Assembly (NCBI GenBank): GCA_964432305.1
Contig: CAYSND010000001.1
Coordinates: 1-50,420 of the forward strand
DNA length: 50,420 nt
Direction of reading: 5' to 3'
Origin: an uncultured Muribaculaceae bacterium
Lineage (GTDB): Bacteria > Bacteroidota > Bacteroidia > Bacteroidales > UBA932
How positions within the stretch are numbered: position 1 is the first letter of the stretch; each line of letters starts with the position of its first letter. Below, in pieces: positions 9,043 through 50,420 of this stretch. The notes below the pieces were generated by a model. It saw only the letters and a program-made list of their open reading frames with translations. It ran no database searches and was not told where the DNA came from. The position numbers were made by a program, and so were the translations under genes.

Positions 9043-9068
9043 TTTTTGAATATTGAATATTTTTATGA

Positions 9069-9076: not shown

Positions 9077-9095
9077 ATACTTTTTTGCTAAAAAA

Positions 9096-11185: not shown

Positions 11186-11197
11186 GGAAATTTGGTG

Positions 11198-13239: not shown

Positions 13240-13260
13240 TATAAATTATTTAAGGTTAAA

Positions 13261-13268
13261 CAAAGATA
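13261..13268 (-). promoter_or_regulatory. Candidate -7 box (TATCTTTG) for the pncB-led operon
   Basis: The minus-strand TATCTTTG lies 21 nt upstream of the pncB ATG. Confidence 0.45.
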
Positions 13269-13282
13269 TGGCTTTTATTTAT

Positions 13283-13290
13283 TATTTTTG
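13283..13290 (+). promoter_or_regulatory. Candidate -7 box (TATTTTTG) for the amgK-like operon
   Basis: TATTTTTG has 20 nt between its end and the ATG at 13311. It stands back-to-back with the pncB box in a 71-bp divergent intergenic region. Confidence 0.45.
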
Positions 13291-13310
13291 CAAAGAATAA
13301 AGTTATATTT

Positions 13311-14726: not shown

Positions 14727-14728
14727 TT

Positions 14729-19053: not shown

Positions 19054-19058
19054 AATAT

Positions 19059-21413
19059 ATGAAAAGAACATTTCTAACAGGTTTAGTAACCGCTATCGCA
19101 ATTATCCTATTAGGCTCTTGTACAGCCAAAAAAGAGGTTTACAATGAGGGGATCAATATAATCCCTACTCCACTATCAATGACCGTACTTGAAGGAGACG
19201 GTTTTATTCTTGGAAAAACCATAGAGATAACTGTTAACTCTAAGGAGGCTTTACAGGTAGCATATTTCTTTGAGTCAAAACTCAAACTCTCCACAGGTGC
19301 AAAGATTAAAGTGGAGATGAGAGAGACACCCGGAAATATTAATCTCTTTTTGGATGAGAATTTTGACTCCAAAGGGGAGGGGTACTCATTGAAAGTAACA
19401 GCAGAGGGGGTAAATGTGACAGCGAAGGCTCCTGCCGGTCTTTTTTATGGAATGCAGACTCTGCTTCAACTTTTACCTGCCGAGGTGGAGAGTGCGAAGA
19501 GAGTTTCAGGTATTGAGTGGAAGGCTCCGGCAGTAGAGATAAAAGATGAACCTCGTTTTGGGTATAGAGGAGTTCTATTGGATGTATGCCGCCATTTTGC
19601 ACCTGTTGACTTTATAAAGAAGCAGTTGGATGTAATGGCTCTTTTCAAAATTAACAGATTCCATTGGCACCTAACTGAAGATCAGGCTTGGCGCGTGGAG
19701 ATAAAGCAGTACCCTCTATTAACAGAGATAGGGTCAAAAAGAGTTGAAGGAGAGGGATTTGAGCACTCAGGTTTTTATACCCAGGAGGAGATAAAAGAGA
19801 TAGTAGCTTATGCTGCAGAGCGTCAGATAACCATTGTTCCAGAATTAGAGGTTCCCGGGCATGAATTAGCAGCTATTGCTGCATACCCTGAGCTCTCTTG
19901 TAAAGGGGAACCGATCACTCCGAGGATTGTTTGGGGTGTGGAGGATATTGTTATGTGTCCCGGGAAAGAGGACATGTTTGTTTTCCTTGAGAATGTTATT
20001 AGCGAACTGGCTCCTCTATTCCCCGGTGAGTATTTCCATATTGGTGGAGATGAGTGCCCTAAGAGTAGTTGGAAAGAGTGTCCTCTCTGTCAGGCTAAGA
20101 TTAAAAAAGAGGGATTTAAGAGCAATAAAAATCATACTGCCGAGGAGTATCTTCAGAGTTATGTAATTAGAAGGGTTGAGGCTATGCTTGCAAAGTATGG
20201 AAAAAAGATTATCGGATGGGATGAGATTCTTGAAGGGGGACTTGCTCCCACTGCCACTGTTATGTCATGGAGAGGTGAAGAGGGGGGTATTGCGGCAGCA
20301 AACGAAGGGCATGATGCTATTATGACTCCCGGAAGTCAAGGGATGTATATAGACCATTATCAGGGTGACAGCAAGATAGAGCCGGTAGCCATCGGTGGAT
20401 ATTCCACTCTTGAAAAAGTATATAGTTATGATCCTGTTCCTCAGTCGCTTATAGAGTCAGGAAAAGCTCATCATATAATCGGTGTTCAGAATAATCTTTG
20501 GGCAGAATATCTTTATACCACAGACCTTGTGGAGTATAGATTATGGCCAAGAGCCATTGCCCTTTCAGAAATAGCTTGGAGCGTTCCTGAAAATAAGAAC
20601 TTCGGAGATTTTTCCAGAAGGATAGAAAATGCGCTTGTACGTCTTGATAATCATAATATTAATTATCATATCCCTCTACCTGAGCAGCCTAATGGCTCAT
20701 GTGACTATGTTGCTTTCACTGATAAAGCTACCCTTGAGTTTACCACCACTCGTCCTATGAGGATTATTTATACCCTTAACGGAGTGATTCCTGCTGATAA
20801 TTCGGCTACTTATACTGAGCCGATTACCATCGACAAGACTACTACTCTGAAGATTTGTACTATTCTTCCATCAGGGAAGAAATCACCCGTCCGCACCATT
20901 ACCGTTGAGAAGCAGACACTTGCACCTGCACTTACTGTGGAGGCGCCTAAATCAGGAATTCTTATGAAGAGTACCCCCGGTTACTATCTTAATGTGGATG
21001 AGTTAAATAAGAGTGAAAGGGAGTGGAGCGAAGAGTCTGTTGTATCTGATTTCTTTGCACTTAGAGCACTTTATCCCTCTAATGAATCTGTAAGAAATTT
21101 CCCTCATTATGCTGCGATAGGGAGAGGGCTTGTAAATATACCTGAGGATGGAGTCTATTATTTCTCTTCTAATAATGACGAGGTATGGATAGATGGGGAG
21201 CTACTAATTAATAATAGAAATGAGGTTAAGAAGTTTTCTCGTAACGACAAGTCTGTAGCTCTTGCTGCAGGAATGCATGAAATCAAAGTGGTATTTCTAT
21301 CTCATATCATTGGTGGAGTCCCCTCTGTTTGGGATGCTGCGGATGTTAAAATTAGAAAAGAGGGTAATAATAGTTTTGAAAAAATAACTGCTGAAATGCT
21401 ATTTCATCAATAA
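19059..21413 (+). CDS. GH20 beta-N-acetylhexosaminidase lipoprotein with C-terminal CHB_HEX_C-like and PA14-like domains
   Basis: 784 aa. Lipobox LLGSC. GH20 motifs RGVLLDVCRHF, NRFHWHLTEDQAWR, YFHIGGDE and VMSWRG. C-terminal PA14-like segment GLVNIPEDGVYYFSSNNDEVWIDGELLINN...AGMHEIKVVF. Confidence 0.9.
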   Translation: MKRTFLTGLVTAIAIILLGSCTAKKEVYNEGINIIPTPLSMTVLEGDGFILGKTIEITVNSKEALQVAYFFESKLKLSTGAKIKVEMRETPGNINLFLDENFDSKGEGYSLKVTAEGVNVTAKAPAGLFYGMQTLLQLLPAEVESAKRVSGIEWKAPAVEIKDEPRFGYRGVLLDVCRHFAPVDFIKKQLDVMALFKINRFHWHLTEDQAWRVEIKQYPLLTEIGSKRVEGEGFEHSGFYTQEEIKEIVAYAAERQITIVPELEVPGHELAAIAAYPELSCKGEPITPRIVWGVEDIVMCPGKEDMFVFLENVISELAPLFPGEYFHIGGDECPKSSWKECPLCQAKIKKEGFKSNKNHTAEEYLQSYVIRRVEAMLAKYGKKIIGWDEILEGGLAPTATVMSWRGEEGGIAAANEGHDAIMTPGSQGMYIDHYQGDSKIEPVAIGGYSTLEKVYSYDPVPQSLIESGKAHHIIGVQNNLWAEYLYTTDLVEYRLWPRAIALSEIAWSVPENKNFGDFSRRIENALVRLDNHNINYHIPLPEQPNGSCDYVAFTDKATLEFTTTRPMRIIYTLNGVIPADNSATYTEPITIDKTTTLKICTILPSGKKSPVRTITVEKQTLAPALTVEAPKSGILMKSTPGYYLNVDELNKSEREWSEESVVSDFFALRALYPSNESVRNFPHYAAIGRGLVNIPEDGVYYFSSNNDEVWIDGELLINNRNEVKKFSRNDKSVALAAGMHEIKVVFLSHIIGGVPSVWDAADVKIRKEGNNSFEKITAEMLFHQ

Positions 21414-21424
21414 TTATAAGAGAT

Positions 21425-24400
21425 ATGATAAAATTTCTTCTACTCCTGCCATTAGTCTTAACTCCGTATTGGAAAGACGTATCGGTATATAAAGTTAATC
21501 GTGAAGATTATCGTACAGAGTTTATCTCATTTAACTCAAAAGAAGAGGCTCTTTCCAAGAAGTTCGAGGAGTCCCCTTACTACTACTCTCTTAACGGTGT
21601 ATGGAAGTTTCTCTACTCAGACGATTATAGAGAGATCCCTGAAGGGGTTCAGAATATGGACAATGTCTCTTCCTGGGATGATATTACAGTCCCCGGAAAT
21701 TGGGAGAGACAAGGGTATGGGGTGGCTATCTATGTAAATCACCCTTATGAATTTCAAACAAAGAATCCAACCCCCCCTCTATTACCGGAGAAGAACCCTA
21801 TGGGGGTATATCATAGAACCTTTGACCTCCCTTCAGGTTGGGGTGATAGAGAGATTCTCTTAAATATATGTGGTGCCAAATCAGGAGTTTATGTTTATTT
21901 GAACGGAGAGGAGATAGGGTATTCTACTAATTCAAAAGATAGGGCAGAGTTCAGACTTACAGGGGTGCAGAGAGATGGGAAACCTCTTCTTAAAGAGAAG
22001 GGTAATGTCCTTGTTTTTAAGATTATGCGTTGGAGTAGTGGCTCTTGGCTCGAGTGTCAGGACTTTTGGAGAATAAGTGGTATTGAGAGGGATGTTTACC
22101 TTTCATCTGAGCCAAAAGCTTTTGTGAAAGATTTTTCGGTAGTCTCAAAACTTGATAAGGGGTTGAAGGATGGATACTTTGCATTGGATCTATCCCTTTC
22201 CAACCCTTCCGAGAAGGAGATAACAGTCGGGTATGAACTATTGGATGCACAAGGGAGTGTAGTGGCTTCCGAGAGTTCAAAGAGTTCCGGTGCTGAAATT
22301 TGTTTTTCTAAAACCCTCCCCGATGTGGAGAAATGGAGCGCAGAATCCCCGTATCTATATAGACTTCTAATCTCGGTTAGCTCAGATGGTAAGGTGGAGT
22401 ATATCCCTTTCAGAGTCGGTTTCAGAAGGTTTGAAATAGTAGGTTCCCTCTTTTTGGTAAATGGTGAGCCTATTAAGTTTAAGGGGGTTAATATCCATGA
22501 ACACAACGAAGTAACCGGTCACTATGTTACCGAGGAGTTAATGAGGAAAGATTTCGAGATAATGCGAAAGAACAATATCAATGCTGTTCGTACCGCACAC
22601 TACCCTCAGCCAAGGAGATTTTATGAATTATGTGATGAGATAGGGATTTATGTCTATACAGAGGCTAATATTGAGTCGCATGGTATGGGGTATAACCTCA
22701 ATCGTGGACGTTCTCTTGGAAATAACAGGGATTTTTGGGGCCTCCATTTGGATAGAATAGAGGGGATGTATAAAAGGACAGCCAATTACCCTTCCGTAGC
22801 TATTTTATCACTTGGGAATGAGGCAGGGAACGGATATAATTTCTATAAAGCTTATGAGTGGATTGAGAGACTTGAGAAGGGGGAGAATAAGATGAACAGA
22901 CCTATCTGCTATGAGAGGGCATTATGGGAGTGGAATAGCGATATGTATGTTCCCCAATACCCCGATGCCGAATGGTTCCAGAAAATAGGGGAGTCAGGAA
23001 GCGACCGCCCTATCATGCCATCAGAATATTCACACTCTATGGGTAACTCCACAGGTGGTATATGGAGACAGTGGTACTATATATATCAGTATCCTCATCT
23101 TCAAGGTGCATTTATTTGGGACTGGGTCGATCAGGGGCTGTTAGAGCACGATGCAGAAGGGAGAAAATATTGGACTTTCGGTGGTGATTATGGTGTTAAT
23201 ACGCCGAGTGACGGGAATTTCTGCTGTAATGGTTTAATAAACCCTAATCGTCAACCTCACCCCGCAATAGATGAGGTTAAATATGCTTATTCTAATTTTG
23301 CTGTCAAAGAGATAGATATACAGAGGGGAATTTTTGAGGTTGCTAATAGATTTTATTTCACAGACTTATCTAAATATGAGCTCCTCTATAATATTTTAGA
23401 AGAGGGGAAAGTGATAAAGAAGGGGAGCCTTAACCTGACCACTCCTCCTCAAAAGTCAGAGCAGATTACCATCCCTCTCGATAAAATATCTATGAAAGAG
23501 GGGTATTATTATCTTATTAATTTCTCCCTTGTTACTAAGAGTGAGGAGAGATATATCCCTGCTAAATATAGTATAGCAAAGGAGCAGTTTATTCTTAAAG
23601 CCCCTGCTAAAACTATAAACAAAATAGCAACAAAGGGGGCACCACTCTCTCTCTCTGAAGATCCCTCCAAAGTTACTATCTCCTCAAAGAGTGTGAGCTT
23701 GCTCCTTAATAAAGTTTCAGGCGAAGTTATCTCATTGAAATATAAAGGGAAGGAAATTTTCACAGATAATTTCGGTATAAGACCAAATTTCTGGAGGGCT
23801 CCTGTGGATAATGATTACGGAAGTAATATGCCTGTTAGGCTTGCTATATGGAAAAATGCCCCTACAGTTTCTGAAGTAACTGCCCGTATGCAAGATGGAA
23901 ACGGAGTAATAAATGTTAAATACAGACTTGCCCCGGGTAATACTCTCGAGTTGGTTTATACACTCTACCCCTCAGGTGAACTCCATACTGCACTTAATTA
24001 CTCTGCAGCACCCGAAGGGACACCTGAGATTCCAAGATTAGGTGTAAGATTCAGACTCCCTAAGAGCAATAATATGTTTACCTACTTCGGAAGAGGTCCT
24101 CACGAGAACTATGTTGATAGAAAGGCAGGTTCTATGATGGGGCTCTATGCGTTAAATACTGATATTTCATATTTCCCTTATGTCCGTCCTCAGGAGAATG
24201 GGCACAGATGTGATACTAAATGGTTGTCTTTCAATGGATTCAGGATAATTGCCGACGACCTTTTAGAGTTTAATGTTCTACATAATAGTGTCGAGGATTT
24301 CGACAGGGGTAAACAGAGTCATATTAATGACATAATTCCTCAGAATTTTGTTGAGGTTTCTCTCGATTTTAAACATATGGGAATCGGAGGTTTTGATAGT

Positions 24401-24478
24401 TGGGGGAGCAGACCTGAGGATTATGCACTTGTGGATGCTAAAGGAACTTATAGTTGGGGATTTTCGATAGTACCTTAA
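21425..24478 (+). CDS. GH2 beta-galactosidase (LacZ-like)
   Basis: 1017 aa. Acid/base SLGNEAGNG, nucleophile region PSEYSHSMGNS (E. coli has CEYAHAMGNS) and a C-terminal small-chain domain (RPQENGHR). Confidence 0.9.
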   Translation: MIKFLLLLPLVLTPYWKDVSVYKVNREDYRTEFISFNSKEEALSKKFEESPYYYSLNGVWKFLYSDDYREIPEGVQNMDNVSSWDDITVPGNWERQGYGVAIYVNHPYEFQTKNPTPPLLPEKNPMGVYHRTFDLPSGWGDREILLNICGAKSGVYVYLNGEEIGYSTNSKDRAEFRLTGVQRDGKPLLKEKGNVLVFKIMRWSSGSWLECQDFWRISGIERDVYLSSEPKAFVKDFSVVSKLDKGLKDGYFALDLSLSNPSEKEITVGYELLDAQGSVVASESSKSSGAEICFSKTLPDVEKWSAESPYLYRLLISVSSDGKVEYIPFRVGFRRFEIVGSLFLVNGEPIKFKGVNIHEHNEVTGHYVTEELMRKDFEIMRKNNINAVRTAHYPQPRRFYELCDEIGIYVYTEANIESHGMGYNLNRGRSLGNNRDFWGLHLDRIEGMYKRTANYPSVAILSLGNEAGNGYNFYKAYEWIERLEKGENKMNRPICYERALWEWNSDMYVPQYPDAEWFQKIGESGSDRPIMPSEYSHSMGNSTGGIWRQWYYIYQYPHLQGAFIWDWVDQGLLEHDAEGRKYWTFGGDYGVNTPSDGNFCCNGLINPNRQPHPAIDEVKYAYSNFAVKEIDIQRGIFEVANRFYFTDLSKYELLYNILEEGKVIKKGSLNLTTPPQKSEQITIPLDKISMKEGYYYLINFSLVTKSEERYIPAKYSIAKEQFILKAPAKTINKIATKGAPLSLSEDPSKVTISSKSVSLLLNKVSGEVISLKYKGKEIFTDNFGIRPNFWRAPVDNDYGSNMPVRLAIWKNAPTVSEVTARMQDGNGVINVKYRLAPGNTLELVYTLYPSGELHTALNYSAAPEGTPEIPRLGVRFRLPKSNNMFTYFGRGPHENYVDRKAGSMMGLYALNTDISYFPYVRPQENGHRCDTKWLSFNGFRIIADDLLEFNVLHNSVEDFDRGKQSHINDIIPQNFVEVSLDFKHMGIGGFDSWGSRPEDYALVDAKGTYSWGFSIVP

Positions 24479-24488
24479 TTTAAGTATA

Positions 24489-25985
24489 ATGGAGAGAAGA
24501 AAATTGGTTTTTGGGGTAACAGGAACGGTTATCGGCTCAGTAATACTTGGAGCCAACTGTTCCCCTGCGCCCCAAAAGAGTAAAAAGCCTAATGTTATCT
24601 ACATTCTTGCCGATGATCTTGGCTATGGAGACCTTGCTTGTTATGGACAACAAAAAATCGAGACCCCTAATATAGACGCTCTCGCTTCTAAAGGGATTCG
24701 TTTTACTCAGCACTATTCAGGTACTGCTGTCTCTGCTCCATCCAGATGCGTTTTGCTAACAGGGCTCCACACAGGTCACTCGCAGATTAATAACAATGAC
24801 GAGATGGCAAGTCGTGGTAATGTTTGGAGTCATAGTGCAATGCTTGCAGACTCCACACTTGAAGGGCAACGTCCTTTGAAAGAGGGGACCATAACACTTG
24901 CCACCAAGATGAAAGAGGCAGGACTTGTTACTGCCTGCGTAGGGAAGTGGGGGTTGGGCTACCCCGGCTCCGAAGGGACTCCGAATAAGATGGGATTCGA
25001 TTTTTTCTATGGGTATAACTGCCAGAGGCAGGCTCATACTTACTTTCCCCCTTTCGTCTATCGCAATGAGAGGAGGGAGTATCTAAACAATGAGTTTCGT
25101 CCTCCGCATGCCTCTCCCTTAGATAAAGGGGCAGACCCTTATTTAGAGAGAAGTTATGAAAAATATTGGCAGAAGGAGTATGTTCCGGATCTCTCTTTTA
25201 ATGAGATAAGGTCATTTATTAATAATAATAGGGATACCTCTTTCTTCCTTATGTGGACTACCACCATTCCGCATGTTCCGCTTCAAGCACCTAAAAGATG
25301 GGTTGATTATTATGTTAAGAAATTCGGTGATGAAAAGCCATATACTGGGGGGGAATATTTCCCCTGTAGATATCCACATGCTACTTATGCTGCTATGATT
25401 AGTTATTTCGATGAGCAGGTGGGACTATTGGTGGAGCAGTTAAAAGAGCTTGGAATTTACGATAATACTGTGATTATATTTACAAGTGACAATGGTCCTT
25501 CAATGGCTACAGGAGGGGCAGACTCCCCTTGGTTTAATAGTGCAGCCCCTTTTAGCAGTGAGAATGGGAGGGTAAAAGCCTCTTTACGTGAAGGTGGTAT
25601 CAGGGTTCCTATGGTTATTACATGGGGCGAGAAGATAAAGAGAGCTAGAGAGTCGGATCATATTTCAGCTTTCTGGGATGTTATGCCTACTCTTTGTGAA
25701 TTAGAAGGGGTAAAGGCTCCTGCTGAAACCGATGGAATCTCTTTTCTCCCAACGCTTCTCGGTAAAAAACAGAAGAAGCATGAATATCTTTATTGGGAGT
25801 TTCCGGCAGGGAGTGGCTCTAAAGCTCTTAGAATGGGGGATTGGAAAGGTTATATAGAGAATACAAATAAAGGAAACACCTTAATAGAACTCTATGACTT
25901 GAAAAAAGACCCATTAGAGAAAAATGATGTAGCAGCTCTAAATAAAGATGTGGTGAAAAAGATGAACGAGATAATGAATAAGTAA
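24489..25985 (+). CDS. Formylglycine-dependent sulfatase (Ser-type)
   Basis: 498 aa. Contains PNVIYILADDLGYGDL and the signature S-A-P-S-R-CVLLTG, encoded at 24732-24746. N-terminus MERRKLVF...LGANC (RR motif plus lipobox-like Cys). Confidence 0.9.
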   Translation: MERRKLVFGVTGTVIGSVILGANCSPAPQKSKKPNVIYILADDLGYGDLACYGQQKIETPNIDALASKGIRFTQHYSGTAVSAPSRCVLLTGLHTGHSQINNNDEMASRGNVWSHSAMLADSTLEGQRPLKEGTITLATKMKEAGLVTACVGKWGLGYPGSEGTPNKMGFDFFYGYNCQRQAHTYFPPFVYRNERREYLNNEFRPPHASPLDKGADPYLERSYEKYWQKEYVPDLSFNEIRSFINNNRDTSFFLMWTTTIPHVPLQAPKRWVDYYVKKFGDEKPYTGGEYFPCRYPHATYAAMISYFDEQVGLLVEQLKELGIYDNTVIIFTSDNGPSMATGGADSPWFNSAAPFSSENGRVKASLREGGIRVPMVITWGEKIKRARESDHISAFWDVMPTLCELEGVKAPAETDGISFLPTLLGKKQKKHEYLYWEFPAGSGSKALRMGDWKGYIENTNKGNTLIELYDLKKDPLEKNDVAALNKDVVKKMNEIMNK

Positions 25986-26007
25986 GATATTTGATAAACA
26001 ATATATT

Positions 26008-29000
26008 ATGAGAAAACTTTTATTGCTTTTAATATTCCCTATTTTTATTTTGGGGTGTAATGGTAAGGGAGAGAGTAATTTTACCCAATTTGTAGATCCA
26101 TATATTGGTTCCGGTGACCATGGGCATGTCTTTGTGGGGGCAAATCTCCCTTTTGGATTCGTTCAGCTTGGTCCCAATCAGTTGACTCAAGGGTGGGATT
26201 GGTGCTCAGGTTATAACTGGGTGGATTCTACTATTGTAGGGTTTGGACACCTTCATTTGAGCGGAACAGGAATAGGTGATTTGGGCGATGTGGTTTTAAT
26301 GCCTGCCGTGGGTGAGGTAAAAATGGTAAGAGGGGTGGTAGAAGACCCTGTCTCCGGGATTTACTCACACTTTTCCCATGAAAAGGAGAGTGTGCGTCCC
26401 GGTTTTTACTCTGTTTATCTCGACAGGTATGATATCTCTGTGGAACTCACTGCTACTAAGCGCGTAGGTTTTCATAAATACAAATTCCCTAAATCGGAGG
26501 ATGCAAAGGTTATTTTTGACCTCCAAAGTGGAATCGGGTGGGACACTCCTGTCGATTGTTATATAAAACAGGAGAGTGAAACTCTCTTTAGCGGTTATAG
26601 AAAATCGAAGGGGTGGGCTGAATCTCAGGAGGTCTTTTTCGTGGCAGAATTTTCAAAACCGGTCAAAAGTTTTGCTGTTTACCAATCAGGGGAGTTATTG
26701 GAACAATTCTCCGAAACCCCCACAGGGAAAATATTTGCGGCAGCCTCTTTTGGAACCGAGGAGGGTGAAGAGGTAATGGTAAAAGTGGCATTGTCCCCTG
26801 TAAGTATAGAGAATGCGAAGTTAAATATGAAAGAGGAGCTTTCAGGTTGGGACTTTGCAAAAACTGTCAAAGAGGCGGATAGTGCTTGGAATGAGGAACT
26901 CTCCAAGATTAAGATAGAAACATCAAATCTTTCCGACAAGAAGATATTTTATACTGCCTTATATCATACTATGACTGCTCCATCTCACTTTCAAGATCTG
27001 AACGGGGATTATCGCGGAGCTGATCTAAAGGTCTATAACGACACCTCTTTTCTGAATTATACCACTTTTTCTCTCTGGGATACATATCGGGCAGCTCACC
27101 CCCTTATGACTATAATCCATCCCGAAAAAGTTAAAGATATGGGAAATACCATGATTGATATATTTAAAAAGCAGGGTAAACTCCCCGTTTGGCACCTTAT
27201 GGGGAATGAGACTAACTGTATGGTGGGGAATCCGGGTATTCCGGTTCTTGCCGATATGGTTCTGAAAGGGTATGATATAGATGCAGAGGCTGCTTTTGAG
27301 GCTATGAAAAGCTCCGCGATGTTGGATGAGCGGGGACTTAAATGGATGAAAAAATATGGATATCTCCCTTATGATTTAGAAGATGCAAATGAATCAGTGG
27401 CCAAAACACTCGAATATGCACTTGCCGACTGGTGTGTGGCGCAGGTGGCTCTAAAGCTCGGAAAAATAGAGGATTATAACTATTTTACCAAAAGAAGTAA
27501 GGCATATAAATTTTTCTTTGACTCTGAGAAGAGATTTATGAGGGCTCTTTCATCAAAGGGAAAATTCAGAGAACCATTTGATCCTTTCCGCTCTTCACAT
27601 CGTGTTGATGATTATACGGAAGGGAATGCTTGGCAATATACCTGGCTCGTTCCCCATGATGTTGAGGGACTTGTAGAACTTTTTGGGGGTAAAGTCCCAT
27701 TCATAGAAAAATTAGATTCTCTCTTTACCGTTAAGGGAGATATGGGAGATGAAGCCTCTCCTGACATTTCAGGACTGATAGGACAATATGCCCACGGTAA
27801 TGAACCGAGTCATCATATTATTTACCTCTATACTATGTTAGGTCAGCAGTGGAAAACCGCTGACAGAGTTCGTGAAGTGCTTACGACTCTTTATCATGAT
27901 GCCCCTGCAGGACTCTGTGGAAATGAAGATGTAGGGCAGATGTCGGCATGGTATATAATGTCAGCAATGGGATTTTATCAGGTGGCTCCTGCAGGGGGAG
28001 TCTATTATTTTGGCTCGCCTCTCATGGATAAGGTAACTATTAATGTGGGTGGAGATAAGAACTTTACAATAATAGCCCATAATAATAGTCGTGAAAACAA
28101 GTATGTAAAAAGTATTAAGCTCAACGGGAAAACCCACTCAGAAAATTATATAAAACACTCCGATATAATGGAAGGTGGTCTCCTTGAGTTTGAAATGACC
28201 TCGACACCCCCTCCTGCTCCGTATGGAGCACTCCCTACTTCGCAGCAGATAGAGTGGCAGAAGATGGAGCATTATATGTTTGCTCACTTTGGACCTAACA
28301 CCTTTACTGATGTAGAGTGGGGGGATGGGAAAGAGGATCCAAAAGTCTTTCTCCCTACTGATCTTGATTGTCGTCAATGGGCTAAAATCGCAAAAGAGTC
28401 GGGATTGCAGGGGATAATTGTTACAGCAAAGCATCATGACGGTTTCTGTTTATGGCCTACCAATTACAGCACTCATACTGTTAGAGAGTCCCTTTGGAAA
28501 GAGGGTAAAGGGGATGTTATAAAAGAACTCTCAGAGGCTTGTAAGGAGTATGGTATTAAGATGGGGGTCTATCTCTCCCCTTGGGATCAAAATCACCCTA
28601 CTTACGGAACAGCAGATTATAATAAGGTCTTTGCAGCTACGCTTGATGAAATCCTCTCCTCGTATGGAGATATTTTTGAACAGTGGTTTGACGGAGCTTG
28701 TGGGGTGGATATGAAATTCCAATATGATTGGAAGTTGTTTAGAGAGACAGTTTATAAAAATCAGCCAAACGCCATTATATTTAGTGATACAGGACCGGGG
28801 TGTAGATGGATAGGGAATGAAAGAGGGTTTGCAGGTGCTACCAACTGGAGTACTATTAATCTTGCAGGGTACCTCCCTGGGAGAGAGTCCCCTTCATTGG
28901 ATACTCTAAATAGTGGAAACTGCAATGGCTCTCACTGGAGTGCAGGTGAGGTAGATGTATCGATTCGTCCGGGGTGGTTTTATTCCCCCTCTACCGATAA

Positions 29001-30276
29001 TCAAGTTAAGAGTGTGAGTAAACTTATGCAGATATATTATGAGTCAGTAGGTAGAAATGCCACACTTTTATTAAATGTCCCTCCTGACCGCAGGGGTAAA
29101 ATACACCCTAATGACTCCCTCAGACTTATGGAGTTTAAGAGAGAGAGAGATGCTGCTTTTAAAAACAGGATATTACCTAAATCGGTTTTGTCGGATAATA
29201 TTAGAGGAGGAGAGGGTTCAAGCTATTCTCCCTCAAATATTATTGATAATGATTATGATACTTATTGGGCTACCGATGATGCTGTTACGTTAGCTTCTGT
29301 TACTCTTAATCTAAAGAATAATAGTAAAGTCAATATGATTTTACTCCAAGAGTTTATTCCTCTTGGTCAGAGAATTAAAGAATTTAATGTAGAGTCTCTT
29401 AATGATAAAGGGGAGTGGGTTAAAATAGCCTCGGGAACGACTATCGGTTACAAAAGAATAATTCGTTTTAATGAGGTACAGACCTCAGGAATAAGAGTAA
29501 ATATTACTAAATCTTTAGCTCCTCCAACACTCAATAATATAGAATTATACCATAATAAACAGGAGTGGAAAGAGGTATGGAGGGAGGATTTCAATGGTAA
29601 TGCTGTAGATACTCTTATATGGTCAAGAGTCCCAAGAGACTATCCCGACTGGAAAAATAAGATGGCGGATGATGATTCGCTTGTATGGGTGAAAGATGGA
29701 AACCTTATTCTTAGAGGTGTGGTGAATGGGACTAAACCTGAAGATACTTCTGCATTTTTAACGGGAGGAATTTGGGGAAAATATAAAAAATCTTTTTGGG
29801 CAGGAAGAGTTGATATAAAGGCCAAAATAGATTGTGGAACCGGTTTTTGGCCCGCCCTTTGGCTCCTCCCTGATCATCAGAAATGGCCCCATGGAGGGGA
29901 GATAGATATAATGGAGCACCTTAATAGGGATAGTATAGTCTATCAAACAGCCCACTCTCCCTATACTCAACTCTTAGGGATAAAAGAGGATCCACAACAC
30001 TCCGCTCTTATTAAATACAATCCCGGAGAGTTTAATATTTACAGTGTAGAGATTCACACCGATAGCTTGGTCTTTTTTGTGAATGGTAAGAGGAACTTCA
30101 CGTATCCTAGAATAGAGACTCCGCATAAAGGACAATTCCCATTTGCAGACAACCCCTTCTATCTCATTTTATCTGCACAGCTTGGTGGCTCATGGGTAGG
30201 TGAGGTAAATCCTGCTGATCTCCCTTTAGCAATGAGTGTGGATTGGATTAAATTTTCGGAATTAAGAAGTAAATAA
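26008..30276 (+). CDS. Multi-catalytic lipoprotein: GH92 alpha-mannosidase + GH29 alpha-L-fucosidase + F5/8-type-C (CBM32-like) + GH16
   Basis: One uninterrupted 1422-codon ORF with ATG start and lipobox FILGC. Module motifs are listed in the four domain features below. Only the first module has a signal peptide. Confidence 0.85.
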   Translation: MRKLLLLLIFPIFILGCNGKGESNFTQFVDPYIGSGDHGHVFVGANLPFGFVQLGPNQLTQGWDWCSGYNWVDSTIVGFGHLHLSGTGIGDLGDVVLMPAVGEVKMVRGVVEDPVSGIYSHFSHEKESVRPGFYSVYLDRYDISVELTATKRVGFHKYKFPKSEDAKVIFDLQSGIGWDTPVDCYIKQESETLFSGYRKSKGWAESQEVFFVAEFSKPVKSFAVYQSGELLEQFSETPTGKIFAAASFGTEEGEEVMVKVALSPVSIENAKLNMKEELSGWDFAKTVKEADSAWNEELSKIKIETSNLSDKKIFYTALYHTMTAPSHFQDLNGDYRGADLKVYNDTSFLNYTTFSLWDTYRAAHPLMTIIHPEKVKDMGNTMIDIFKKQGKLPVWHLMGNETNCMVGNPGIPVLADMVLKGYDIDAEAAFEAMKSSAMLDERGLKWMKKYGYLPYDLEDANESVAKTLEYALADWCVAQVALKLGKIEDYNYFTKRSKAYKFFFDSEKRFMRALSSKGKFREPFDPFRSSHRVDDYTEGNAWQYTWLVPHDVEGLVELFGGKVPFIEKLDSLFTVKGDMGDEASPDISGLIGQYAHGNEPSHHIIYLYTMLGQQWKTADRVREVLTTLYHDAPAGLCGNEDVGQMSAWYIMSAMGFYQVAPAGGVYYFGSPLMDKVTINVGGDKNFTIIAHNNSRENKYVKSIKLNGKTHSENYIKHSDIMEGGLLEFEMTSTPPPAPYGALPTSQQIEWQKMEHYMFAHFGPNTFTDVEWGDGKEDPKVFLPTDLDCRQWAKIAKESGLQGIIVTAKHHDGFCLWPTNYSTHTVRESLWKEGKGDVIKELSEACKEYGIKMGVYLSPWDQNHPTYGTADYNKVFAATLDEILSSYGDIFEQWFDGACGVDMKFQYDWKLFRETVYKNQPNAIIFSDTGPGCRWIGNERGFAGATNWSTINLAGYLPGRESPSLDTLNSGNCNGSHWSAGEVDVSIRPGWFYSPSTDNQVKSVSKLMQIYYESVGRNATLLLNVPPDRRGKIHPNDSLRLMEFKRERDAAFKNRILPKSVLSDNIRGGEGSSYSPSNIIDNDYDTYWATDDAVTLASVTLNLKNNSKVNMILLQEFIPLGQRIKEFNVESLNDKGEWVKIASGTTIGYKRIIRFNEVQTSGIRVNITKSLAPPTLNNIELYHNKQEWKEVWREDFNGNAVDTLIWSRVPRDYPDWKNKMADDDSLVWVKDGNLILRGVVNGTKPEDTSAFLTGGIWGKYKKSFWAGRVDIKAKIDCGTGFWPALWLLPDHQKWPHGGEIDIMEHLNRDSIVYQTAHSPYTQLLGIKEDPQHSALIKYNPGEFNIYSVEIHTDSLVFFVNGKRNFTYPRIETPHKGQFPFADNPFYLILSAQLGGSWVGEVNPADLPLAMSVDWIKFSELRSK
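26077..28203 (+). other. GH92 module of the fusion (aa ~24-732)
   Basis: Contains FVDPYIGSG..GH, FSLWDTYRA, YTEGNAWQYTW (Glu codon at 27619-27621), YAHGNEPSHH and CGNEDVGQMSAWY (Asp codon at 27928-27930). Ends ...GGLLEFEMTS before the Pro-rich linker TSTPPPAPYG (28198-28227). Confidence 0.85.
28243..29172 (+). other. GH29 alpha-L-fucosidase module (aa ~746-1055)
   Basis: Contains QQIEWQKMEHYMFAHFGPNTF, AKHHDGFCLWPT and the nucleophile context FEQWFDGA (Asp codon at 28690-28692). The ELWFDGA-type motif plus a following discoidin domain is the GH29-B-like layout. Confidence 0.8.
29185..29556 (+). other. F5/8 type C (discoidin / CBM32-like) module (aa ~1060-1183)
   Basis: Contains NIIDNDYDTYWATDD...ILLQEF...IKEFNVES...WVKIASGTTIGYKRIIRF...IRVNI. 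Confidence 0.7.
29563..30273 (+). other. GH16 module (aa ~1186-1422)
   Basis: Begins WKEVWREDFNG, then GFWPALWLLP and the catalytic E-I-D-I-M-E encoded at 29899-29916. Ends MSVDWIKF. Confidence 0.8.
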
Positions 30277-30279
30277 AAC

Positions 30280-31947
30280 ATGAGAAGGATAACATTTCTA
30301 CTAATATCTCTTTTTCTACTTATCGGATGTAAAGATAGGGGGATGACTCTGATTAAGTTCAAACAGGGTACATATCATTACTACTCTTCAGAGGCATTTA
30401 TAAGGGACTATTATATCTCTAACCACGACCAGGTTACACCAAAAAAGATTGCTATCCCTATCGATGGTCTTGAGGATATTATTTTAGATGGAAATGGCTC
30501 ACACCTGATAATGCATAATCAAATTATCCCTATATCAATAGTCAATTCTAAAAATATTAAACTCAGAAATTTTACCATAGATTACGATAATCCACATATT
30601 ATTCAAGCTAAAGTGCTTGAGAATGACACTACAAATAGATTTATAATTTTTGAAACAGCCCCCTGGGTACAATATGTTATTAAAGACTCCCTCTTTTATG
30701 GAGTAGGGGAGGATTGGGAATATCACCCTACCATAGCAAGCGTATTCGAGGGGGATACTAAAAGGGTACTCTATAATTCGAGTGATATTTCTCTTCATAT
30801 TAATAGGGTGGAGGAGATTAGTAAAGGGGTTATAAAAGCCAATGGGTGGTTTGACAAAAGACTGCTCCCCGGTACCGTTATGGCTATGCGAACATATTAT
30901 CGTCCTAATCCCGGTATATTTATCAGTGGCTCTAAGGATATTACGATAGAAAATGTTACTGTTCACTACGCTGAGGGGATGGGGCTTTTGGCACAAATGA
31001 GTGAAAATATAACGTTAAATAATTTCTCTGTCGCCTTAAAAGGGGCTACTGATCCCCGTTATTTTACCACCCAGGCAGATGCGACACATTTTTCGGGGTG
31101 TAAAGGGGTAATAATCTCCCAAAATGGTCTTTATGAAGGGATGATGGATGATGCCATTAATGTTCATGGTACCTATTTGAAAATAGTAAAGAGGGTGGAT
31201 GATAGGAGTGTGGTAGGGAGATATATGCATCCTCAAAGCTACGGTTTCTTATGGGGGGAAGCAGGTGATACTGTTAATTTCATACGCTCCAATACTATGG
31301 ATATCGTAGGTGATAATTATATTATAGAGAGTATTAACCCCTATGATATAGAGAGAGTTTGGGGAGCGAAAGAGTTTCTTGTAACATTTACCACCGGTAT
31401 AGATACCTGCATAAACGAAAATGTCGGTTTCGGTATGGAGAACCTCTCTTGGACGCCCGAGGTTTACTTTAAAAACAATATTATTCGGAACAATAGGGCT
31501 CGCGGAGCACTTTTCAGCACTCCGAAAAAAGTGGTCGTGCAGAGGAATGTATTTGACCATACTTCCGGAACTGGGATTCTTCTCTGTGGGGACTGCAACG
31601 GGTGGTATGAAACAGGCTCTTGTAGAGACATTACCATAAGAAGGAATGTCTTTATAAATGCTCTGACCTCATATTATCAGTTTACAAATGCAGTAATATC
31701 TATATATCCCGTTATACCAGACCTCGAAAATCAGCAGAGTTATTTCCATGGACGTGGTCCTAAGAGTATTAGAATTGAGAAGAATACCTTTAAGACATTT
31801 GACCATCCTATTCTCTATGCAAAATCAGTTAATGGCCTTATCTTCAAAGGGAATTATATTGAGAAGAATAACGACTACCCCCCATTTCATTGGAACAAGG
31901 AGCGGGTTTTACTTGAGAGAGTAATAAATGATGATATAGAGAAGTAG
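30280..31947 (+). CDS. Right-handed parallel beta-helix glycosidase, GH110-like (alpha-1,3-galactosidase candidate)
   Basis: 555 aa. Lipobox LLIGC. The N-terminus FKQGTYHYYSSEAFIRDYYISNHD...ILDGNGSHLIMHNQIIPISIVNSKNIKLRNFTIDY resembles my recollection of GH110 enzymes. Also has PbH1-like repeats (DDAINVHGTY, NNRARGALFSTP). Confidence 0.55.
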   Translation: MRRITFLLISLFLLIGCKDRGMTLIKFKQGTYHYYSSEAFIRDYYISNHDQVTPKKIAIPIDGLEDIILDGNGSHLIMHNQIIPISIVNSKNIKLRNFTIDYDNPHIIQAKVLENDTTNRFIIFETAPWVQYVIKDSLFYGVGEDWEYHPTIASVFEGDTKRVLYNSSDISLHINRVEEISKGVIKANGWFDKRLLPGTVMAMRTYYRPNPGIFISGSKDITIENVTVHYAEGMGLLAQMSENITLNNFSVALKGATDPRYFTTQADATHFSGCKGVIISQNGLYEGMMDDAINVHGTYLKIVKRVDDRSVVGRYMHPQSYGFLWGEAGDTVNFIRSNTMDIVGDNYIIESINPYDIERVWGAKEFLVTFTTGIDTCINENVGFGMENLSWTPEVYFKNNIIRNNRARGALFSTPKKVVVQRNVFDHTSGTGILLCGDCNGWYETGSCRDITIRRNVFINALTSYYQFTNAVISIYPVIPDLENQQSYFHGRGPKSIRIEKNTFKTFDHPILYAKSVNGLIFKGNYIEKNNDYPPFHWNKERVLLERVINDDIEK

Positions 31948-31993
31948 TCTATTTGTTTTTTTCCTAACTTTACAACAATTAAATCTATATAGA

Positions 31994-33106
31994 ATGTATA
32001 AAAACGATAAGAGAATAGTAATGACGCTTGATGCCGGCGGAACTAATTTTACCTTTTCTGCTATACGTGGCGGTGAATATATTCTTGAACCCATTACGCT
32101 CCCCTCTATGGCAAAGGAGAAAGATGCTTGTTTAGGGAATATAATAAATGGCTTCACTGTTCTTAAAAGAGAATTACCGGAACCCCCTTCTGCTATTAGC
32201 TTTGCTTTTCCCGGTCCGGCAGATTACCCTGCTGGAATTATAGGTGATTTACCTAACTTTCCCTCTTTTAGAGGGGGCGTGGCTCTTGGGCCATTCCTTT
32301 CCGATTACTTTAAGATTCCTGTTTTTATTAATAACGATGCGGATCTTTTTGCATATGGTGAGGCATTGACAGGTGCTTTGCCTGAAGTCAATAGAAGACT
32401 TGCCGATTTAGGGAGCATGAAAAGGTATAATAATCTTCTTGGAATTACTGTAGGAACCGGATTTGGGGCGGGTGTGGTTATAGATGGACATCTTATGAGG
32501 GGGGACAATGCCGTAGCAGGTGAGATTTGGTGTCTAAGAAATAAGAAATATCCCCATTGTATAGTTGAAGAGAGTGTAAGTAATAGAGCTGTTCAGAGAG
32601 TCTACTCAAACCTCTCAGGGGATAATACTTTTATGACCTCAAAACATATTTATGAAATAGCTAAGGGAATAAGGGATGGGGACAAAGGGGCTGCTATAGC
32701 CGCTTTTGAAGAGTTAGGAGAGATAGCCGGGTGTGCAATAGCTGATGCGATCGCTATAATAGATGGACTTATTGTTTTTGGAGGTGGACTTTCAGGGGCT
32801 TCAGAGTTTATAATCCCCTCTATGATAAGGGAGATGAATAGAACAATAACTAAACTCAACGGAGAAATGTTCCATCGTCTCCAAATGAGAACCTTTAATC
32901 TTGATAATGAAAAAGAATTTGAAACATTTGCCAAAGGTGAAGTTGTGAAAATTGAGGTCTTTGGCACATCGAGGATGGTTGACTATGATAACTTTAAAAG
33001 GACAGGTATCATTACCACCAAACAGGGAAGCAATAAATCTGTTGCTATAGGTGCCTACTATTTTGCTTTAGAAAAATTAGATTCTACTAAAAAGACCTCT
33101 CGATGA
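31994..33106 (+). CDS. ROK-family sugar kinase (cytoplasmic; divergent)
   Basis: 370 aa with no signal peptide. Contains MTLDAGGTNFTFS and ITVGTGFGAGVVIDGHLMRG. The stop overlaps the next GH92 start by 4 nt. Confidence 0.7.
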   Translation: MYKNDKRIVMTLDAGGTNFTFSAIRGGEYILEPITLPSMAKEKDACLGNIINGFTVLKRELPEPPSAISFAFPGPADYPAGIIGDLPNFPSFRGGVALGPFLSDYFKIPVFINNDADLFAYGEALTGALPEVNRRLADLGSMKRYNNLLGITVGTGFGAGVVIDGHLMRGDNAVAGEIWCLRNKKYPHCIVEESVSNRAVQRVYSNLSGDNTFMTSKHIYEIAKGIRDGDKGAAIAAFEELGEIAGCAIADAIAIIDGLIVFGGGLSGASEFIIPSMIREMNRTITKLNGEMFHRLQMRTFNLDNEKEFETFAKGEVVKIEVFGTSRMVDYDNFKRTGIITTKQGSNKSVAIGAYYFALEKLDSTKKTSR

Positions 33107-35382
33107 AACGATCCCTTTTTTTATTCTTCTGCACAGCCTCTTTCCTATTATATACCTCTTGCAATTTAGTAAATGATTCATCAAAAGATTACACTCAATA
33201 TGTAAATCCTCATATAGGAACAGCTCATTGCAGGTGGTTTCATTTTACCCCCGGTGCTCTTCCTTTCGGAATGGCTAAACCAGCCCCCTCTACTAATGCA
33301 CATTTAGGTAATAAATGGGGTTGGGAGGCAACAGGGTATGATTACCGCGATATAACTATTGAAGGTTTTCCATGTCTTCATGAATTTCAGATAGGGGGGA
33401 TAGTCCTTATGCCTACCGTGGGAGCTTTGGAGACTCTCCCCGGGAGTGTAAATGATACAAGTGGTAAAGGGTATCGTTCTCAATTCTCTCATAATAATGA
33501 ATTTGCTACTGCCGGATACTACTCGGTACTGTTGGATAAATATAATATAAAGGCAGAGTTGACAGCCACTAAAAGGGTAGCTTTTCAGAGATATACATTT
33601 CCCAAAAGTAGCGAGAGCAGAATCTTATTCGATATAGGGAACAGACAAGGGGAGAGCGGAGCGGTTAAAGATGCCAAGGTAACCTATATTGGTGGAGGAA
33701 GAGTAGAGGGGTGGGTTACTACTATTCCGGAATATGTAAAAAAATATCAGCCCGGGGCAGATGTTACACTCTTTTTCTCCGCATTATTAGACAAAGAACC
33801 ATCAGAATTTGGTGCCTTTAATGGAGACTCTATCTATCCGGATAAGAATGAGGCTTGTGGTATAGGAGCAGGAGTTTATCTTGGATTTAATACTTCCTAT
33901 TCCGAGAAAATAACAGTAAAGGTGGGGCTCTCTTATACCTCAGTGGAAAATGCGAGAATAAACTTGGATGCAGAGGCGACAGATATTACTTTTGACGACG
34001 CAAAAGACTCTGCCAAAAAAATATGGAATGAATATCTTGGTCGTATAGAGGTAGAGACCTCAAATAATGATGATTTGGTTAAGTTCTACACAAGTCTCTA
34101 TCATGCACTCTTAGGGAGGGGATTGGCAAGTGATATAAATGGCAGTTACCCTAAATTCGATGGAACAGTTGGGCAGATACCATTGAAAAACGGCAAACCT
34201 ATTCATAATCATTATAACACAGATGCGATGTGGGGTGCTCAGTGGAATTTGAATCAACTCTGGATTCTTGCCTATCCTGAGCATAGCTCGGATTTTATAA
34301 GTAGTCACCTTTTAGTCTATAAAGACTCCGGTTGGTTAGCTGATGGTATAGCTAATAGCAGATATGTTTCAGGAGTAGGAACGAATATGTTATCGCTCTT
34401 AATCAGTGCTGCATATTCTTGCGGAATAAGGGACTTTGATGTAGATTTAGCGTATGAAGCCTCTCTTAAAAATGAGATTGACGGATTAAACAGACCATTA
34501 GGTGCCGGAAGGGTTGATACAGACAGATTTACTCAATATGGCTATGTACCTCATCAAGATTCAGGAATAGGTCCGGATGAATCATTTCTTTTTTCCGCTT
34601 CACATACTCTCGAATATTCTTTCTCCTGTTGGGCTGTAGCTCAGTGGGCAAAATCTCTCGGGAAAATGGATGATTATGAAAAACTCATCTCCCTCTCAAA
34701 GGGGTGGGAGCGTCTATATGACCCCTCTACTAATTTTATAAGACCTAAAATGGTAGATGGAAGATTTATCGATAACTTCGATCCAATGCAAGTTTGGAGA
34801 GGATTCCAAGAAGGAAACGCTTGGCAATATACCTTTTATGTTCCACACGACATAGAGTCTCTAGTGAGCAAAGTGGGTAAAGAAAATTTTAATAACCGAC
34901 TCGACTCCATTTTTACAGTTTCACAGGCAAATCTCTTTAGCGGAGGGACTACAATAGATGCTTTTTCAGGTCTTAAAACTCTCTATAATCATGGTAATCA
35001 GCCCTGTTTACATATATCTTGGCTTTTTAATGAGACAGGAAAACCTGAGCTGTCAGAGAAATGGGTAAAAGCTATTCTTAATGAATTTTACGGGACAGAT
35101 GGTATTCATGGTTACGGATATGGTCAAGATGAAGATCAGGGACAACTCGGAGCCTGGTATGTAATGAGTTCCATAGGACTTTTTGATATTAAGGGACTCA
35201 CCGGGGAGACCCCTTCCTTTTCAGTAGGCTCTCCTTTGTTTGATAAGGTAACCATTAAGCTCTCCAATAAGTATTATTCAGGAGGTAAATTTGTCTTAGA
35301 GTTAAAATCTGATTCCCGTAATACTGCTTTAGCTACTAGACTCCCTTTTAAATCTGTAGTTAAAGGGGGAAAATTATATTAA
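33103..35382 (+). CDS. GH92 alpha-mannosidase lipoprotein
   Basis: 759 aa. Lipobox LYTSC. Contains YVNPHIGT, FQEGNAWQYTF and GQDEDQGQLGAWYVMSS. Confidence 0.9.
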   Translation: MKRSLFLFFCTASFLLYTSCNLVNDSSKDYTQYVNPHIGTAHCRWFHFTPGALPFGMAKPAPSTNAHLGNKWGWEATGYDYRDITIEGFPCLHEFQIGGIVLMPTVGALETLPGSVNDTSGKGYRSQFSHNNEFATAGYYSVLLDKYNIKAELTATKRVAFQRYTFPKSSESRILFDIGNRQGESGAVKDAKVTYIGGGRVEGWVTTIPEYVKKYQPGADVTLFFSALLDKEPSEFGAFNGDSIYPDKNEACGIGAGVYLGFNTSYSEKITVKVGLSYTSVENARINLDAEATDITFDDAKDSAKKIWNEYLGRIEVETSNNDDLVKFYTSLYHALLGRGLASDINGSYPKFDGTVGQIPLKNGKPIHNHYNTDAMWGAQWNLNQLWILAYPEHSSDFISSHLLVYKDSGWLADGIANSRYVSGVGTNMLSLLISAAYSCGIRDFDVDLAYEASLKNEIDGLNRPLGAGRVDTDRFTQYGYVPHQDSGIGPDESFLFSASHTLEYSFSCWAVAQWAKSLGKMDDYEKLISLSKGWERLYDPSTNFIRPKMVDGRFIDNFDPMQVWRGFQEGNAWQYTFYVPHDIESLVSKVGKENFNNRLDSIFTVSQANLFSGGTTIDAFSGLKTLYNHGNQPCLHISWLFNETGKPELSEKWVKAILNEFYGTDGIHGYGYGQDEDQGQLGAWYVMSSIGLFDIKGLTGETPSFSVGSPLFDKVTIKLSNKYYSGGKFVLELKSDSRNTALATRLPFKSVVKGGKLY

Positions 35383-39705: not shown

Positions 39706-39709
39706 AGAT

Positions 39710-44264: not shown

Positions 44265-44301
44265 GACTTCATGCGTATAGATAGTTATTTAATGGGTTGT
44301 C

Positions 44302-45816: not shown

Positions 45817-45824
45817 AGTATAAT

Positions 45825-48122: not shown

Positions 48123-48123
48123 A

Positions 48124-50394: not shown

Positions 50395-50420
50395 AACTAT
50401 GTTCTATAATGAATAATACC

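Follow-up and report, generated by a model that had tools for sequence, protein, structure and literature searches.

A probable tri-catalytic lipoprotein joining GH92, GH29 and GH16 modules in one polypeptide of an uncultured Muribaculaceae bacterium

The GH16_3 O-glycanase BACCAC_03717 of Bacteroides caccae (PDB 6T2R; PMC7419316, Crouch et al. 2020; PMC10154620) is one of nine enzymes of its subfamily that are all endo-beta-1,4-galactosidases, acting on the poly-N-acetyllactosamine (polyLacNAc) of mucin O-glycans and on keratan sulfate (PMC7419316). Among GH92 enzymes, B035DRAFT_03340 (PDB 7ZGM) is an alpha-1,3-mannosidase of the N-glycan core that carries the signal of a signal peptidase II (SPII) lipoprotein, and BT3130 (PDB 6F8Z) is also termed an alpha-1,3-mannosidase (PMC9522356), with Glu535 and Asp637 as its catalytic residues (PMC5930347). 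The GH29 fucosidase AmGH29A (PDB 8AYR) mainly cleaves fucose (Fuc) linked alpha-1,3 to N-acetylglucosamine (GlcNAc) (PMC10067855). Relatives of all three types are combined in a single gene, at positions 26008-30276 of the + strand, on a 50,420-nucleotide stretch of DNA (the "window" in what follows) from an uncultured Muribaculaceae bacterium (contig CAYSND010000001.1, assembly GCA_964432305.1). This fusion gene encodes a lipoprotein signal followed by GH92, GH29 with an F5/8 domain, and GH16. Its product is quite probably a genuine tri-catalytic lipoprotein that arose by seamless fusion of three lipoprotein genes in one Muribaculaceae lineage and that acts, together with the enzymes of its gene cluster, on glycans of the host.

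The open reading frame (ORF) at 26008-30276 runs through 1422 codons (4269 nucleotides, nt) without interruption. Profile searches with Pfam and NCBIfam models, in which every match exceeded its curated gathering threshold, recovered all three catalytic families with their catalytic motifs intact, as had been proposed in an earlier note made from the letters of the DNA alone; the signature peptides lie exactly where that note placed them (TSTPPPAPYG at residues 731-740, nt 28198-28227; FEQWFDGA at residues 890-897; E-I-D-I-M-E at residues 1298-1303, nt 29899-29916). The note had further argued for a genuine fusion rather than three adjacent genes, and the evidence from independent assemblies and from a sister lineage bears this out. 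The identical 1422-residue protein is recorded on seven contigs. The three of these that were read (ENA ERZ28614920, a 250-kb scaffold, and Logan SRR29243443 and ERR2683124) come from different samples and assemblers; across them the fusion gene has 0 mismatches in 4269 nt and gene order is unchanged, with 1-3 mismatches over 20-24 kb in all. In the sister lineage, a second uncultured Muribaculaceae metagenome-assembled genome (MAG; locus L005) has residues 1-1084, with 92% identity, in a single ORF reaching the contig end, and a further sequence (L001) has residues 751-1422 at 91% identity in an ORF open at the opposite contig end. Both alignments are gapless, and both joins between the modules are in frame and almost invariant. 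The ratio of nonsynonymous to synonymous substitution rates (dN/dS), calculated by the Nei-Gojobori method against the sister-lineage sequences at a dS of 0.5-0.8, is 0.07 for GH92, 0.05 for GH29, 0.10-0.16 for the F5/8 domain and 0.09 for GH16. Since it lies at 0.05-0.16 in every module, purifying selection has been kept on all four modules since the fusion.

The origin of the gene can be read from relatives of its parts, which for each module are standalone lipoproteins. The closest GH92s are about 785 residues long (58-63% identity), the closest GH29s with an F5/8 domain 470-690 residues (60-65%), and the closest GH16s 250-285 residues (50-57%). In local alignments, the standalone GH92s end at residues 730-747 of the fusion protein, and most standalone GH29s start at residues 733-736, right after the Cys of their own lipobox (three start earlier, at 714-724). 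The GH29 relatives align as far as residues 1181-1186, past which some carry extra C-terminal domains, and the standalone GH16s start at 1181-1190, just past their own lipobox. Because the homology of standalone relatives stops and starts at the joins in this way, both joins are, as judged from the alignments, seamless. Join 1 (TSTPPPAPYG, 28198-28227, +) leads from the C-terminal tail of GH92 into what would be the mature N-terminus of the GH29 ancestor, and is conserved in L005; Join 2 (LYH/NKQEW, 29545-29568, +) sets the F5/8 domain directly against the GH16 domain and is identical in L001. The Pro-rich linker on which the earlier note had relied is thus present, but it comprises only about 10 residues where the GH92 tail and the mature GH29 N-terminus overlap, and Join 2 is essentially linkerless.

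Three formerly separate lipoprotein genes would, then, have been fused in one Muribaculaceae lineage, with loss at each join of a stop codon, the intergenic DNA and a downstream signal peptide with its lipobox. The fusion gene lies in a co-directional + strand block of nine genes (16255-35382) with intergenic gaps of -4 to 46 nt, and because its genes are so closely spaced, small deletions would have been enough. Several candidates for an unfused state were considered and set aside. An apparent GH29-GH16 protein (P0121, 666 residues, 91% identical to the C-terminal half) is a gene call that ends at a contig edge, its ORF being open at base 1 of L001; cut in this way, it is uninformative on the unfused state. 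A Flavobacterium MAG locus (L045), whose genes match residues 1-1415 of the query, has GH125 as its middle gene and a GH16 only 25% identical. Loci of Pedobacter and Mucilaginibacter hold GH29 and GH92 as adjacent separate genes, often in reversed order, and the GH29 of the Pedobacter locus is of a distant type.

The GH92 module (26089-28200, +), from a family of Ca2+-dependent exo-alpha-mannosidases, consists of an N-domain at residues 28-263 (PF17678, Glyco_hydro_92N; 267.6 bits, cut-off 34.5) and a catalytic domain at residues 269-731 (PF07971, Glyco_hydro_92; 602.6 bits, cut-off 24.6), and the NCBIfam model TIGR01180 covers residues 7-734 (685.9 bits, cut-off 249.55). Its nearest relatives of known structure are 7ZGM (E 2e-187) and 6F8Z/BT3130 (2e-184); the alpha-1,2 enzyme BT3990 scores far lower (4e-125). 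The predicted general acid E538 (nt 27619-27621, in YTEGN) and general base D641 (nt 27928-27930, in GNEDVGQMS) align with E535 and D637 of BT3130. D641 also aligns with D644 of BT3990, for which the catalytic pair is reportedly E533/D644 in the numbering of Zhu et al. 2010. The module is probably an exo-alpha-mannosidase of alpha-1,3 specificity that acts on the N-glycan core.

The catalytic barrel of the GH29 alpha-L-fucosidase (28219-29142, +) is matched by PF01120 (Alpha_L_fucos) at residues 752-1042 (121 bits, cut-off 25.2). It is followed by a CBM32-like beta-sandwich of the F5/8 type C (29143-29550, +), matched by PF00754 (F5_F8_type_C; residues 1070-1168, 43.4 bits, cut-off 28.2) and PF22633 (33.6 bits, cut-off 27.8). 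Residues 738-1173 align end to end with 8AYR (1.5e-111), 3EYP (2.9e-102), 6ORG (3.6e-99) and 3UES (1.1e-96), whereas GH29-A structures (Thermotoga and BT2970-type) reach only 1e-13 to 1e-19; by this comparison the module is of subfamily-B type, nearer to the alpha-1,3/4-specific structures than to GH29-A. Because the alignments to 8AYR, 3EYP and 6ORG pass through the F5/8 domain, to about residue 1173, this domain is a standard part of the GH29 clade. The CBM32-like module singled out in the earlier note is therefore present, not as an independent insert, but as the constant C-terminal beta-sandwich of that clade. D895 (nt 28690-28692), in the conserved WFDGA, and E938, in the conserved GNExG (here IGNERG), are the putative nucleophile and acid/base, roles assigned through the corresponding residues of AfcB, D172 and E217. 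Together, GH29 and F5/8 would remove alpha-1,3/4-fucose from GlcNAc, whether Lewis-type or Fuc-alpha-1,3-GlcNAc. The F5/8 segment (29143-29547) stands apart in base composition, with 33% G+C compared with 41-44% in the three catalytic modules and 40% in the window, and it is also the segment of highest dN/dS (0.10-0.16).

The GH16 module (29560-30264, +; subfamily-3-like) is matched by PF00722 (Glyco_hydro_16) at residues 1260-1414 (42.5 bits, cut-off 22). It has the catalytic ExDxxE as E1298-I-D1300-I-M-E1303 and the three Trp of the subfamily motif described in PMC7419316, here W1281, W1285 and W1293. Residues 1185-1416 match 6T2R with an E-value of 1.8e-83, at 283 bits and with 53% of 231 columns identical; the matches that rank next, to laminarinases and other O-glycanases, lie at about 1e-22, and laminarinases score no more than about 86 bits. 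The affinity to Bacteroides endo-beta-galactosidases of polyLacNAc that had been suggested from the sequence is thereby upheld, and we infer that the module is an endo-beta-1,4-galactosidase cutting inside polyLacNAc chains. For the selection of an axial O4 (Gal) at subsite -1 and of GlcNAc at -2/+1, which would be expected of such an O-glycanase, PMC7419316 gives no residue-level determinants in BACCAC_03717. Elsewhere, at L087:3328-8819, a PNGase_F-II_N/Porph_ging-domain protein and an 878-residue protein without a Pfam match lie between two paralogous BACCAC_03717-like GH16 genes, which have 54% and 57% identity to the window module.

The earlier note did not recognize a combination of GH92, GH29 and GH16, and in protein, representative and genome searches it was indeed not found beyond the sister lineage. 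In word-indexed searches of 5.8 billion proteins, the sole full-length match to the full-length query was the fusion protein itself, and the sole match covering the C-terminal half was the cut-off sister protein P0121. An exhaustive HMMER search of 1.84 billion representatives, for which the C-terminal half served as query, returned no protein that matched GH29, F5/8 and GH16 at comparable score, and none of its top 150 matches carries a GH92 module; since the query's own protein was itself missing from the results, fusions may hide behind representatives of other architecture. L005 is the only one of the best 80 species-representative genome loci with the fusion, and the C-terminal half had no match in a scan of Joint Genome Institute (JGI) metagenome contigs. 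Around the closest standalone GH16s (P0241 and P0253), fusion to a GH29 or GH92 partner was not seen, and the neighborhoods hold only a GH92 N-domain fragment together with a PNGase-F-II-N-like gene. Rarity here means that none was found elsewhere, not that none exists.

Novelty extends to the combination of the three modules, but not to multi-catalytic fusion as such, which is common in these families. GH29-GH95, PNGase-F-like-GH29 and SGNH-esterase-GH29 forms were all encountered. Alistipes GH92-GH125 fusions of about 1175 residues (P0049, P0116, P0120) are very abundant, on hundreds of contigs, with single sequences (among P0022-P0120) on 120-280 contigs each. Two proteins resemble the C-terminal half: P0366 (932 residues) has GH29, F5/8, an Fn3-associated domain, a second F5/8 and GH16, and P0436 (924 residues, from a 59-member cluster) is likewise a GH29...GH16 fusion. 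They are probably independent fusions, since their identity to the protein described here is only 44% in GH29 and 26-34% in GH16.

The remainder of the co-directional block surrounds the fusion gene with predicted glycosidases. Upstream lie a beta-mannosidase-like GH2 (16255-19053), a GH20 (19059-21413), a LacZ-like GH2 (21425-24478) and a sulfatase most like BT1622 (S1_20, for 3-O-sulfated galactose or N-acetylgalactosamine, 3S-Gal/GalNAc; 24489-25985), and downstream a GH110 alpha-1,3-galactosidase (30280-31947), a ROK kinase (31994-33106) and a GH92 (33103-35382), all on the + strand. There follow, on the same strand, a GntR/LacI-type regulator (35514-36494) and a SusC-like and SusD-like pair (36562-41671; SusC 36562-39705, SusD to 41671). 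A convergent block on the - strand (42009-50394) then encodes a GH92 (42009-44264), a sulfatase most like BT1624 (S1_15, 6S-Gal/GalNAc; 44302-45816), another GH92 (45825-48122) and a GH20 (48124-50394). The adjacent SusC/SusD genes, carbohydrate-active enzymes and regulator mark the cluster as a polysaccharide utilization locus (PUL). It continues past window position 50420 on the same scaffold (L085:1-9919), with a LacZ-like GH2, a radical-SAM/SPASM gene and a GH95 fucosidase; the radical-SAM/SPASM product is likely an anaerobic sulfatase-maturating enzyme, and Mfa-like fimbrial genes come after GH95. Neither GH18, GH85 nor a peptide N-glycanase (PNGase) is encoded in the window or in the 10 kb past its right edge. 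The neighbors named in the earlier note (two GH2, two GH20 and two sulfatases), as well as the absence of GH18 and GH85, were confirmed over this same range, in which GH16 is the only predicted endo-acting enzyme of the cluster. Together the enzymes account for alpha-Gal caps, beta-Gal, GlcNAc, Fuc, sulfate on Gal, alpha- and beta-linked mannose (Man), and the internal bonds of polyLacNAc, and because of this inventory the cluster fits, as a predicted substrate class, sulfated and fucosylated complex N-glycans with polyLacNAc and keratan-sulfate-like chains.

Some further features of the window and of related loci were noted. The mechanical SusD ORF (39593-41671, 692 residues) shares about 110 nt (39593-39705) with the end of SusC, and gene callers on identical contigs start SusD later, directly after SusC, to give 653 residues. 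Upstream of the glycosidase block, 8281-15484 encodes a SIS-domain protein, a major facilitator superfamily (MFS) sugar transporter, a ROK kinase, then isochorismatase and NAPRTase genes, and as a last pair an APH/RapZ-C-like kinase and a nucleotidyltransferase, which resemble an amino-sugar salvage pair. A Bacteroides sp. MAG (L090:1-17791, GCA_021201335.1) has unfused relatives of GH29 (65%) and GH92 (60.5%) side by side in a single operon, within a canonical N-glycan PUL with a BT1044-like GH18. This locus holds SusC/D, the GH18, BT_3987-like binding proteins, GH35, GH29 (P0122), GH20, GH3 and GH92, and its set of GH35, GH3, GH29 and GH92 resembles the plant-type N-glycan pathway of PMC9522356. 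N-glycan-type loci of Flavobacterium (L045:671-14834 and L049) encode GH29-A, GH20, a beta-mannosidase-like GH2, GH92, GH125, GH20, glycosylasparaginase and CutC. They also contain a small GH16_3-like gene, which has just 25% identity to the GH16 module and links GH16 to N-glycan genes a second time, in an unrelated way.

In the mechanism proposed here, a single N-terminal lipid anchor would tether three active sites. Together with its neighbors (GH2, GH20, GH110, GH95, the GH92s, sulfatases of the 3S-Gal and 6S-Gal types, and SusC/D) the fusion protein would dismantle host glycans of the sulfated, fucosylated complex N-glycan, polyLacNAc or keratan-like kinds. The benefit of fusion would most likely be obligate co-localization and 1:1:1 stoichiometry of the three activities. 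The most rational pairing would be defucosylation by GH29 beside endo-cleavage by GH16, to which the independent GH29...GH16 fusions P0366 and P0436 also point.

Several observations weigh against this account. The predicted specificities come from relatives whose identity is 44-53%. The +1-subsite segment of 7ZGM (H530-A-E532-S533) corresponds in the GH92 module to H-R-V and a 3-residue gap, such that the residue aligned with H530 is retained and the positions of E532 and S533 are replaced or deleted; because these residues differ from those of 7ZGM, the mannose linkage is uncertain, and alpha-1,3 specificity is likely, not secure. AmGH29A was not reliably active towards intact mucin glycans (PMC10067855), and very weak laminarinase side activity is reported for BACCAC_03717 (PMC7419316). 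Substrate channelling is not obvious, since the three modules would act on non-adjacent layers of an N-glycan. An AlphaFold2 model of residues 735-1422 (the C-terminal 688) has a mean predicted local distance difference test (pLDDT) score of 76, with good F5/8 and GH16 cores, but pLDDT falls to about 31 across residues 1188-1230, so the model is uninformative at Join 2; the low values most probably stem from the MAFFT alignment, in which the GH16 homologues have their first ~50 residues misplaced.

Where the protein resides bears on its place in the order of degradation. The signal peptide (26008-26058, +), as read by eye, has the lipobox ILGC with Cys17 (IIGC in the sister lineage), and a signal of this kind is confined to the first module; the downstream modules start without one, as had been stated earlier. 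Surface export of Bacteroidota lipoproteins is signaled by C-X-K-(D/E)2, SDDDD or SDDFE (PMC5080379). The residues after Cys17, NGKGES here and KSGEES in the sister lineage, match none of these, NGKGES having one acidic residue only and none at +3 to +5. This lack slightly tilts the predicted location towards the periplasm. It may nevertheless be that the fusion protein is exposed at the surface as the initiating enzyme of the cluster, with GH16 making the first endo-cut in place of GH18, GH85 or PNGase, a role suggested in the earlier note. The SPII lipobox and the standing of GH16 as sole predicted endo-enzyme speak for it, as does precedent, in that five of the nine characterized GH16 O-glycanases, BACCAC_03717 included, are lipoproteins and have been proposed to be the first to act, at the surface (PMC7419316). 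We regard this role as possible but do not favor it, and hold it to be rather unlikely, because the canonical export signal is missing in both lineages, because GH16 O-glycanases that work in the periplasm, where they multiply chain ends for exo-enzymes, have been described, and because cuts in polyLacNAc antennae would not free the mannose core on which the beta-mannosidase-like GH2 and the four GH92 domains depend. The genome may encode a GH18 or PNGase at another place, since the complex N-glycan apparatus of Bacteroides is reportedly (by Briliute et al. in 2019, a study cited in PMC7419316) spread over several loci.

A more elaborate surface-tethered machine is less probable still. Here GH29 would strip the alpha-1,3-fucose that blocks internal Gal-beta-1,4-GlcNAc, GH16 would then make the first endo-cut in the fucosylated, sulfated polyLacNAc of N-glycans or keratan sulfate, and a host-glycan PUL would work without GH18, GH85 or PNGase. 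Were this so, the recurrent GH29...GH16 fusions would reflect an obligate mechanistic coupling.

A little more doubtful again is the view that the GH16 module has no relation to host glycans and acts, as do most GH16_3 members, as a beta-1,3(4)-glucanase (laminarinase). The solved laminarinases 4DFS and 3AZX are the next-best structures, at about 1e-23, close homologues are labeled "beta-glucanase" in source databases, and the trace laminarinase activity of BACCAC_03717 mentioned above points the same way. Against these stand the much stronger match to BACCAC_03717 itself (283 bits and 53% identity, compared with about 86 bits for laminarinases), the finding that all nine enzymes tested in PMC7419316 act as endo-beta-1,4-galactosidases, and a gene cluster that contains host-glycan enzymes and sulfatases only. 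Very unlikely is a precursor that is cut proteolytically at the joins into separate enzymes, so that the mature proteins would not be affected by the fusion. Such a view would be in keeping with Join 1, which is short and rich in Pro, Ser and Thr, but Join 2 offers essentially no linker for cutting and the freed C-terminal pieces would lose their sole membrane anchor, whereas the standalone relatives are all lipoproteins; the near invariance of both joins in the sister lineage is compatible with either view. An assembly chimera, or a frameshift or stop missed at a module boundary, is effectively excluded, for although the window comes from a metagenome assembly, no evidence in support was found, the gene is identical in three separately assembled samples, both joins are in frame in a lineage at a dS of about 0.5-0.8, and each module is under purifying selection.

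A genuine tri-catalytic lipoprotein acting on host glycans thus remains the preferred explanation, and it has consequences beyond this locus. If the modules are active as predicted, the protein would be a natural one-polypeptide toolkit for mammalian complex glycans, comprising a mannosidase, a Lewis-type fucosidase and a polyLacNAc endo-galactosidase, and could serve as a reagent for glycan profiling. As a "Rosetta-stone" link, it would connect GH16 O-glycanases of the BACCAC_03717 type, which have until now been considered in relation to mucin O-glycans, with N-glycan-type machinery (GH92 and beta-mannosidase-like GH2) as well as with antennary defucosylation; the link is reinforced by the independent GH29...GH16 fusions and by the unfused GH29 and GH92 relatives in an N-glycan operon. 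It also raises the question of where, between surface and periplasm, a fused endo/exo enzyme fits in the Sus paradigm. No current view is overturned, each domain being an ordinary member of its family and multi-catalytic fusions being frequent in these families.

Compared with the described enzymes, the fusion protein shares with B035DRAFT_03340 and BT3130 the general acid and base and an Asn, not Asp, two residues before the base, and with B035DRAFT_03340 also the nature of an SPII lipoprotein. Each of those two enzymes, unlike the fusion, has a single catalytic domain, and at the +1 subsite HAES of 7ZGM stands against HRV here. AmGH29A, BT2192 (3EYP), SpGH29 (6ORG) and AfcB (3UES) have the same core of barrel and F5/8 domain, with WFDGA and GNExG; they differ in that each has a signal peptide of its own and lacks a further catalytic domain. 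Among these comparators fine specificity is not uniform, AmGH29A acting on the disaccharide only and others on Lewis antigens. With BACCAC_03717 the GH16 module has in common 53% identity over the whole domain, ExDxxE, the three Trp and a Bacteroidales host-glycan context. BACCAC_03717, however, is a standalone chain of 264 residues with its own SPII signal, whereas the GH16 here is a C-terminal module without a separate signal, in which the loop preceding the catalytic strand has a 3-residue deletion.

Among multi-catalytic proteins, the Alistipes GH92-GH125 fusions also have an N-terminal GH92 that belongs to the clade of the present one (58-59% identity) and is joined to another catalytic domain, but they have two catalytic domains, not three, and the GH125 partner is a second mannosidase, for the same sugar. 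P0366 and P0436 likewise place a GH16 with ExDxxE after a GH29-B-type fucosidase with an F5/8 domain; unlike the fusion, they lack GH92, their modules are separated by extra Fn3-associated or second F5/8 domains, and P0366 has an apparent signal of the signal peptidase I (SPI) type in place of a lipoprotein signal. The tri-catalytic architecture of the Muribaculaceae protein is new, but its parts are ordinary representatives of GH92, GH29-B and GH16_3.

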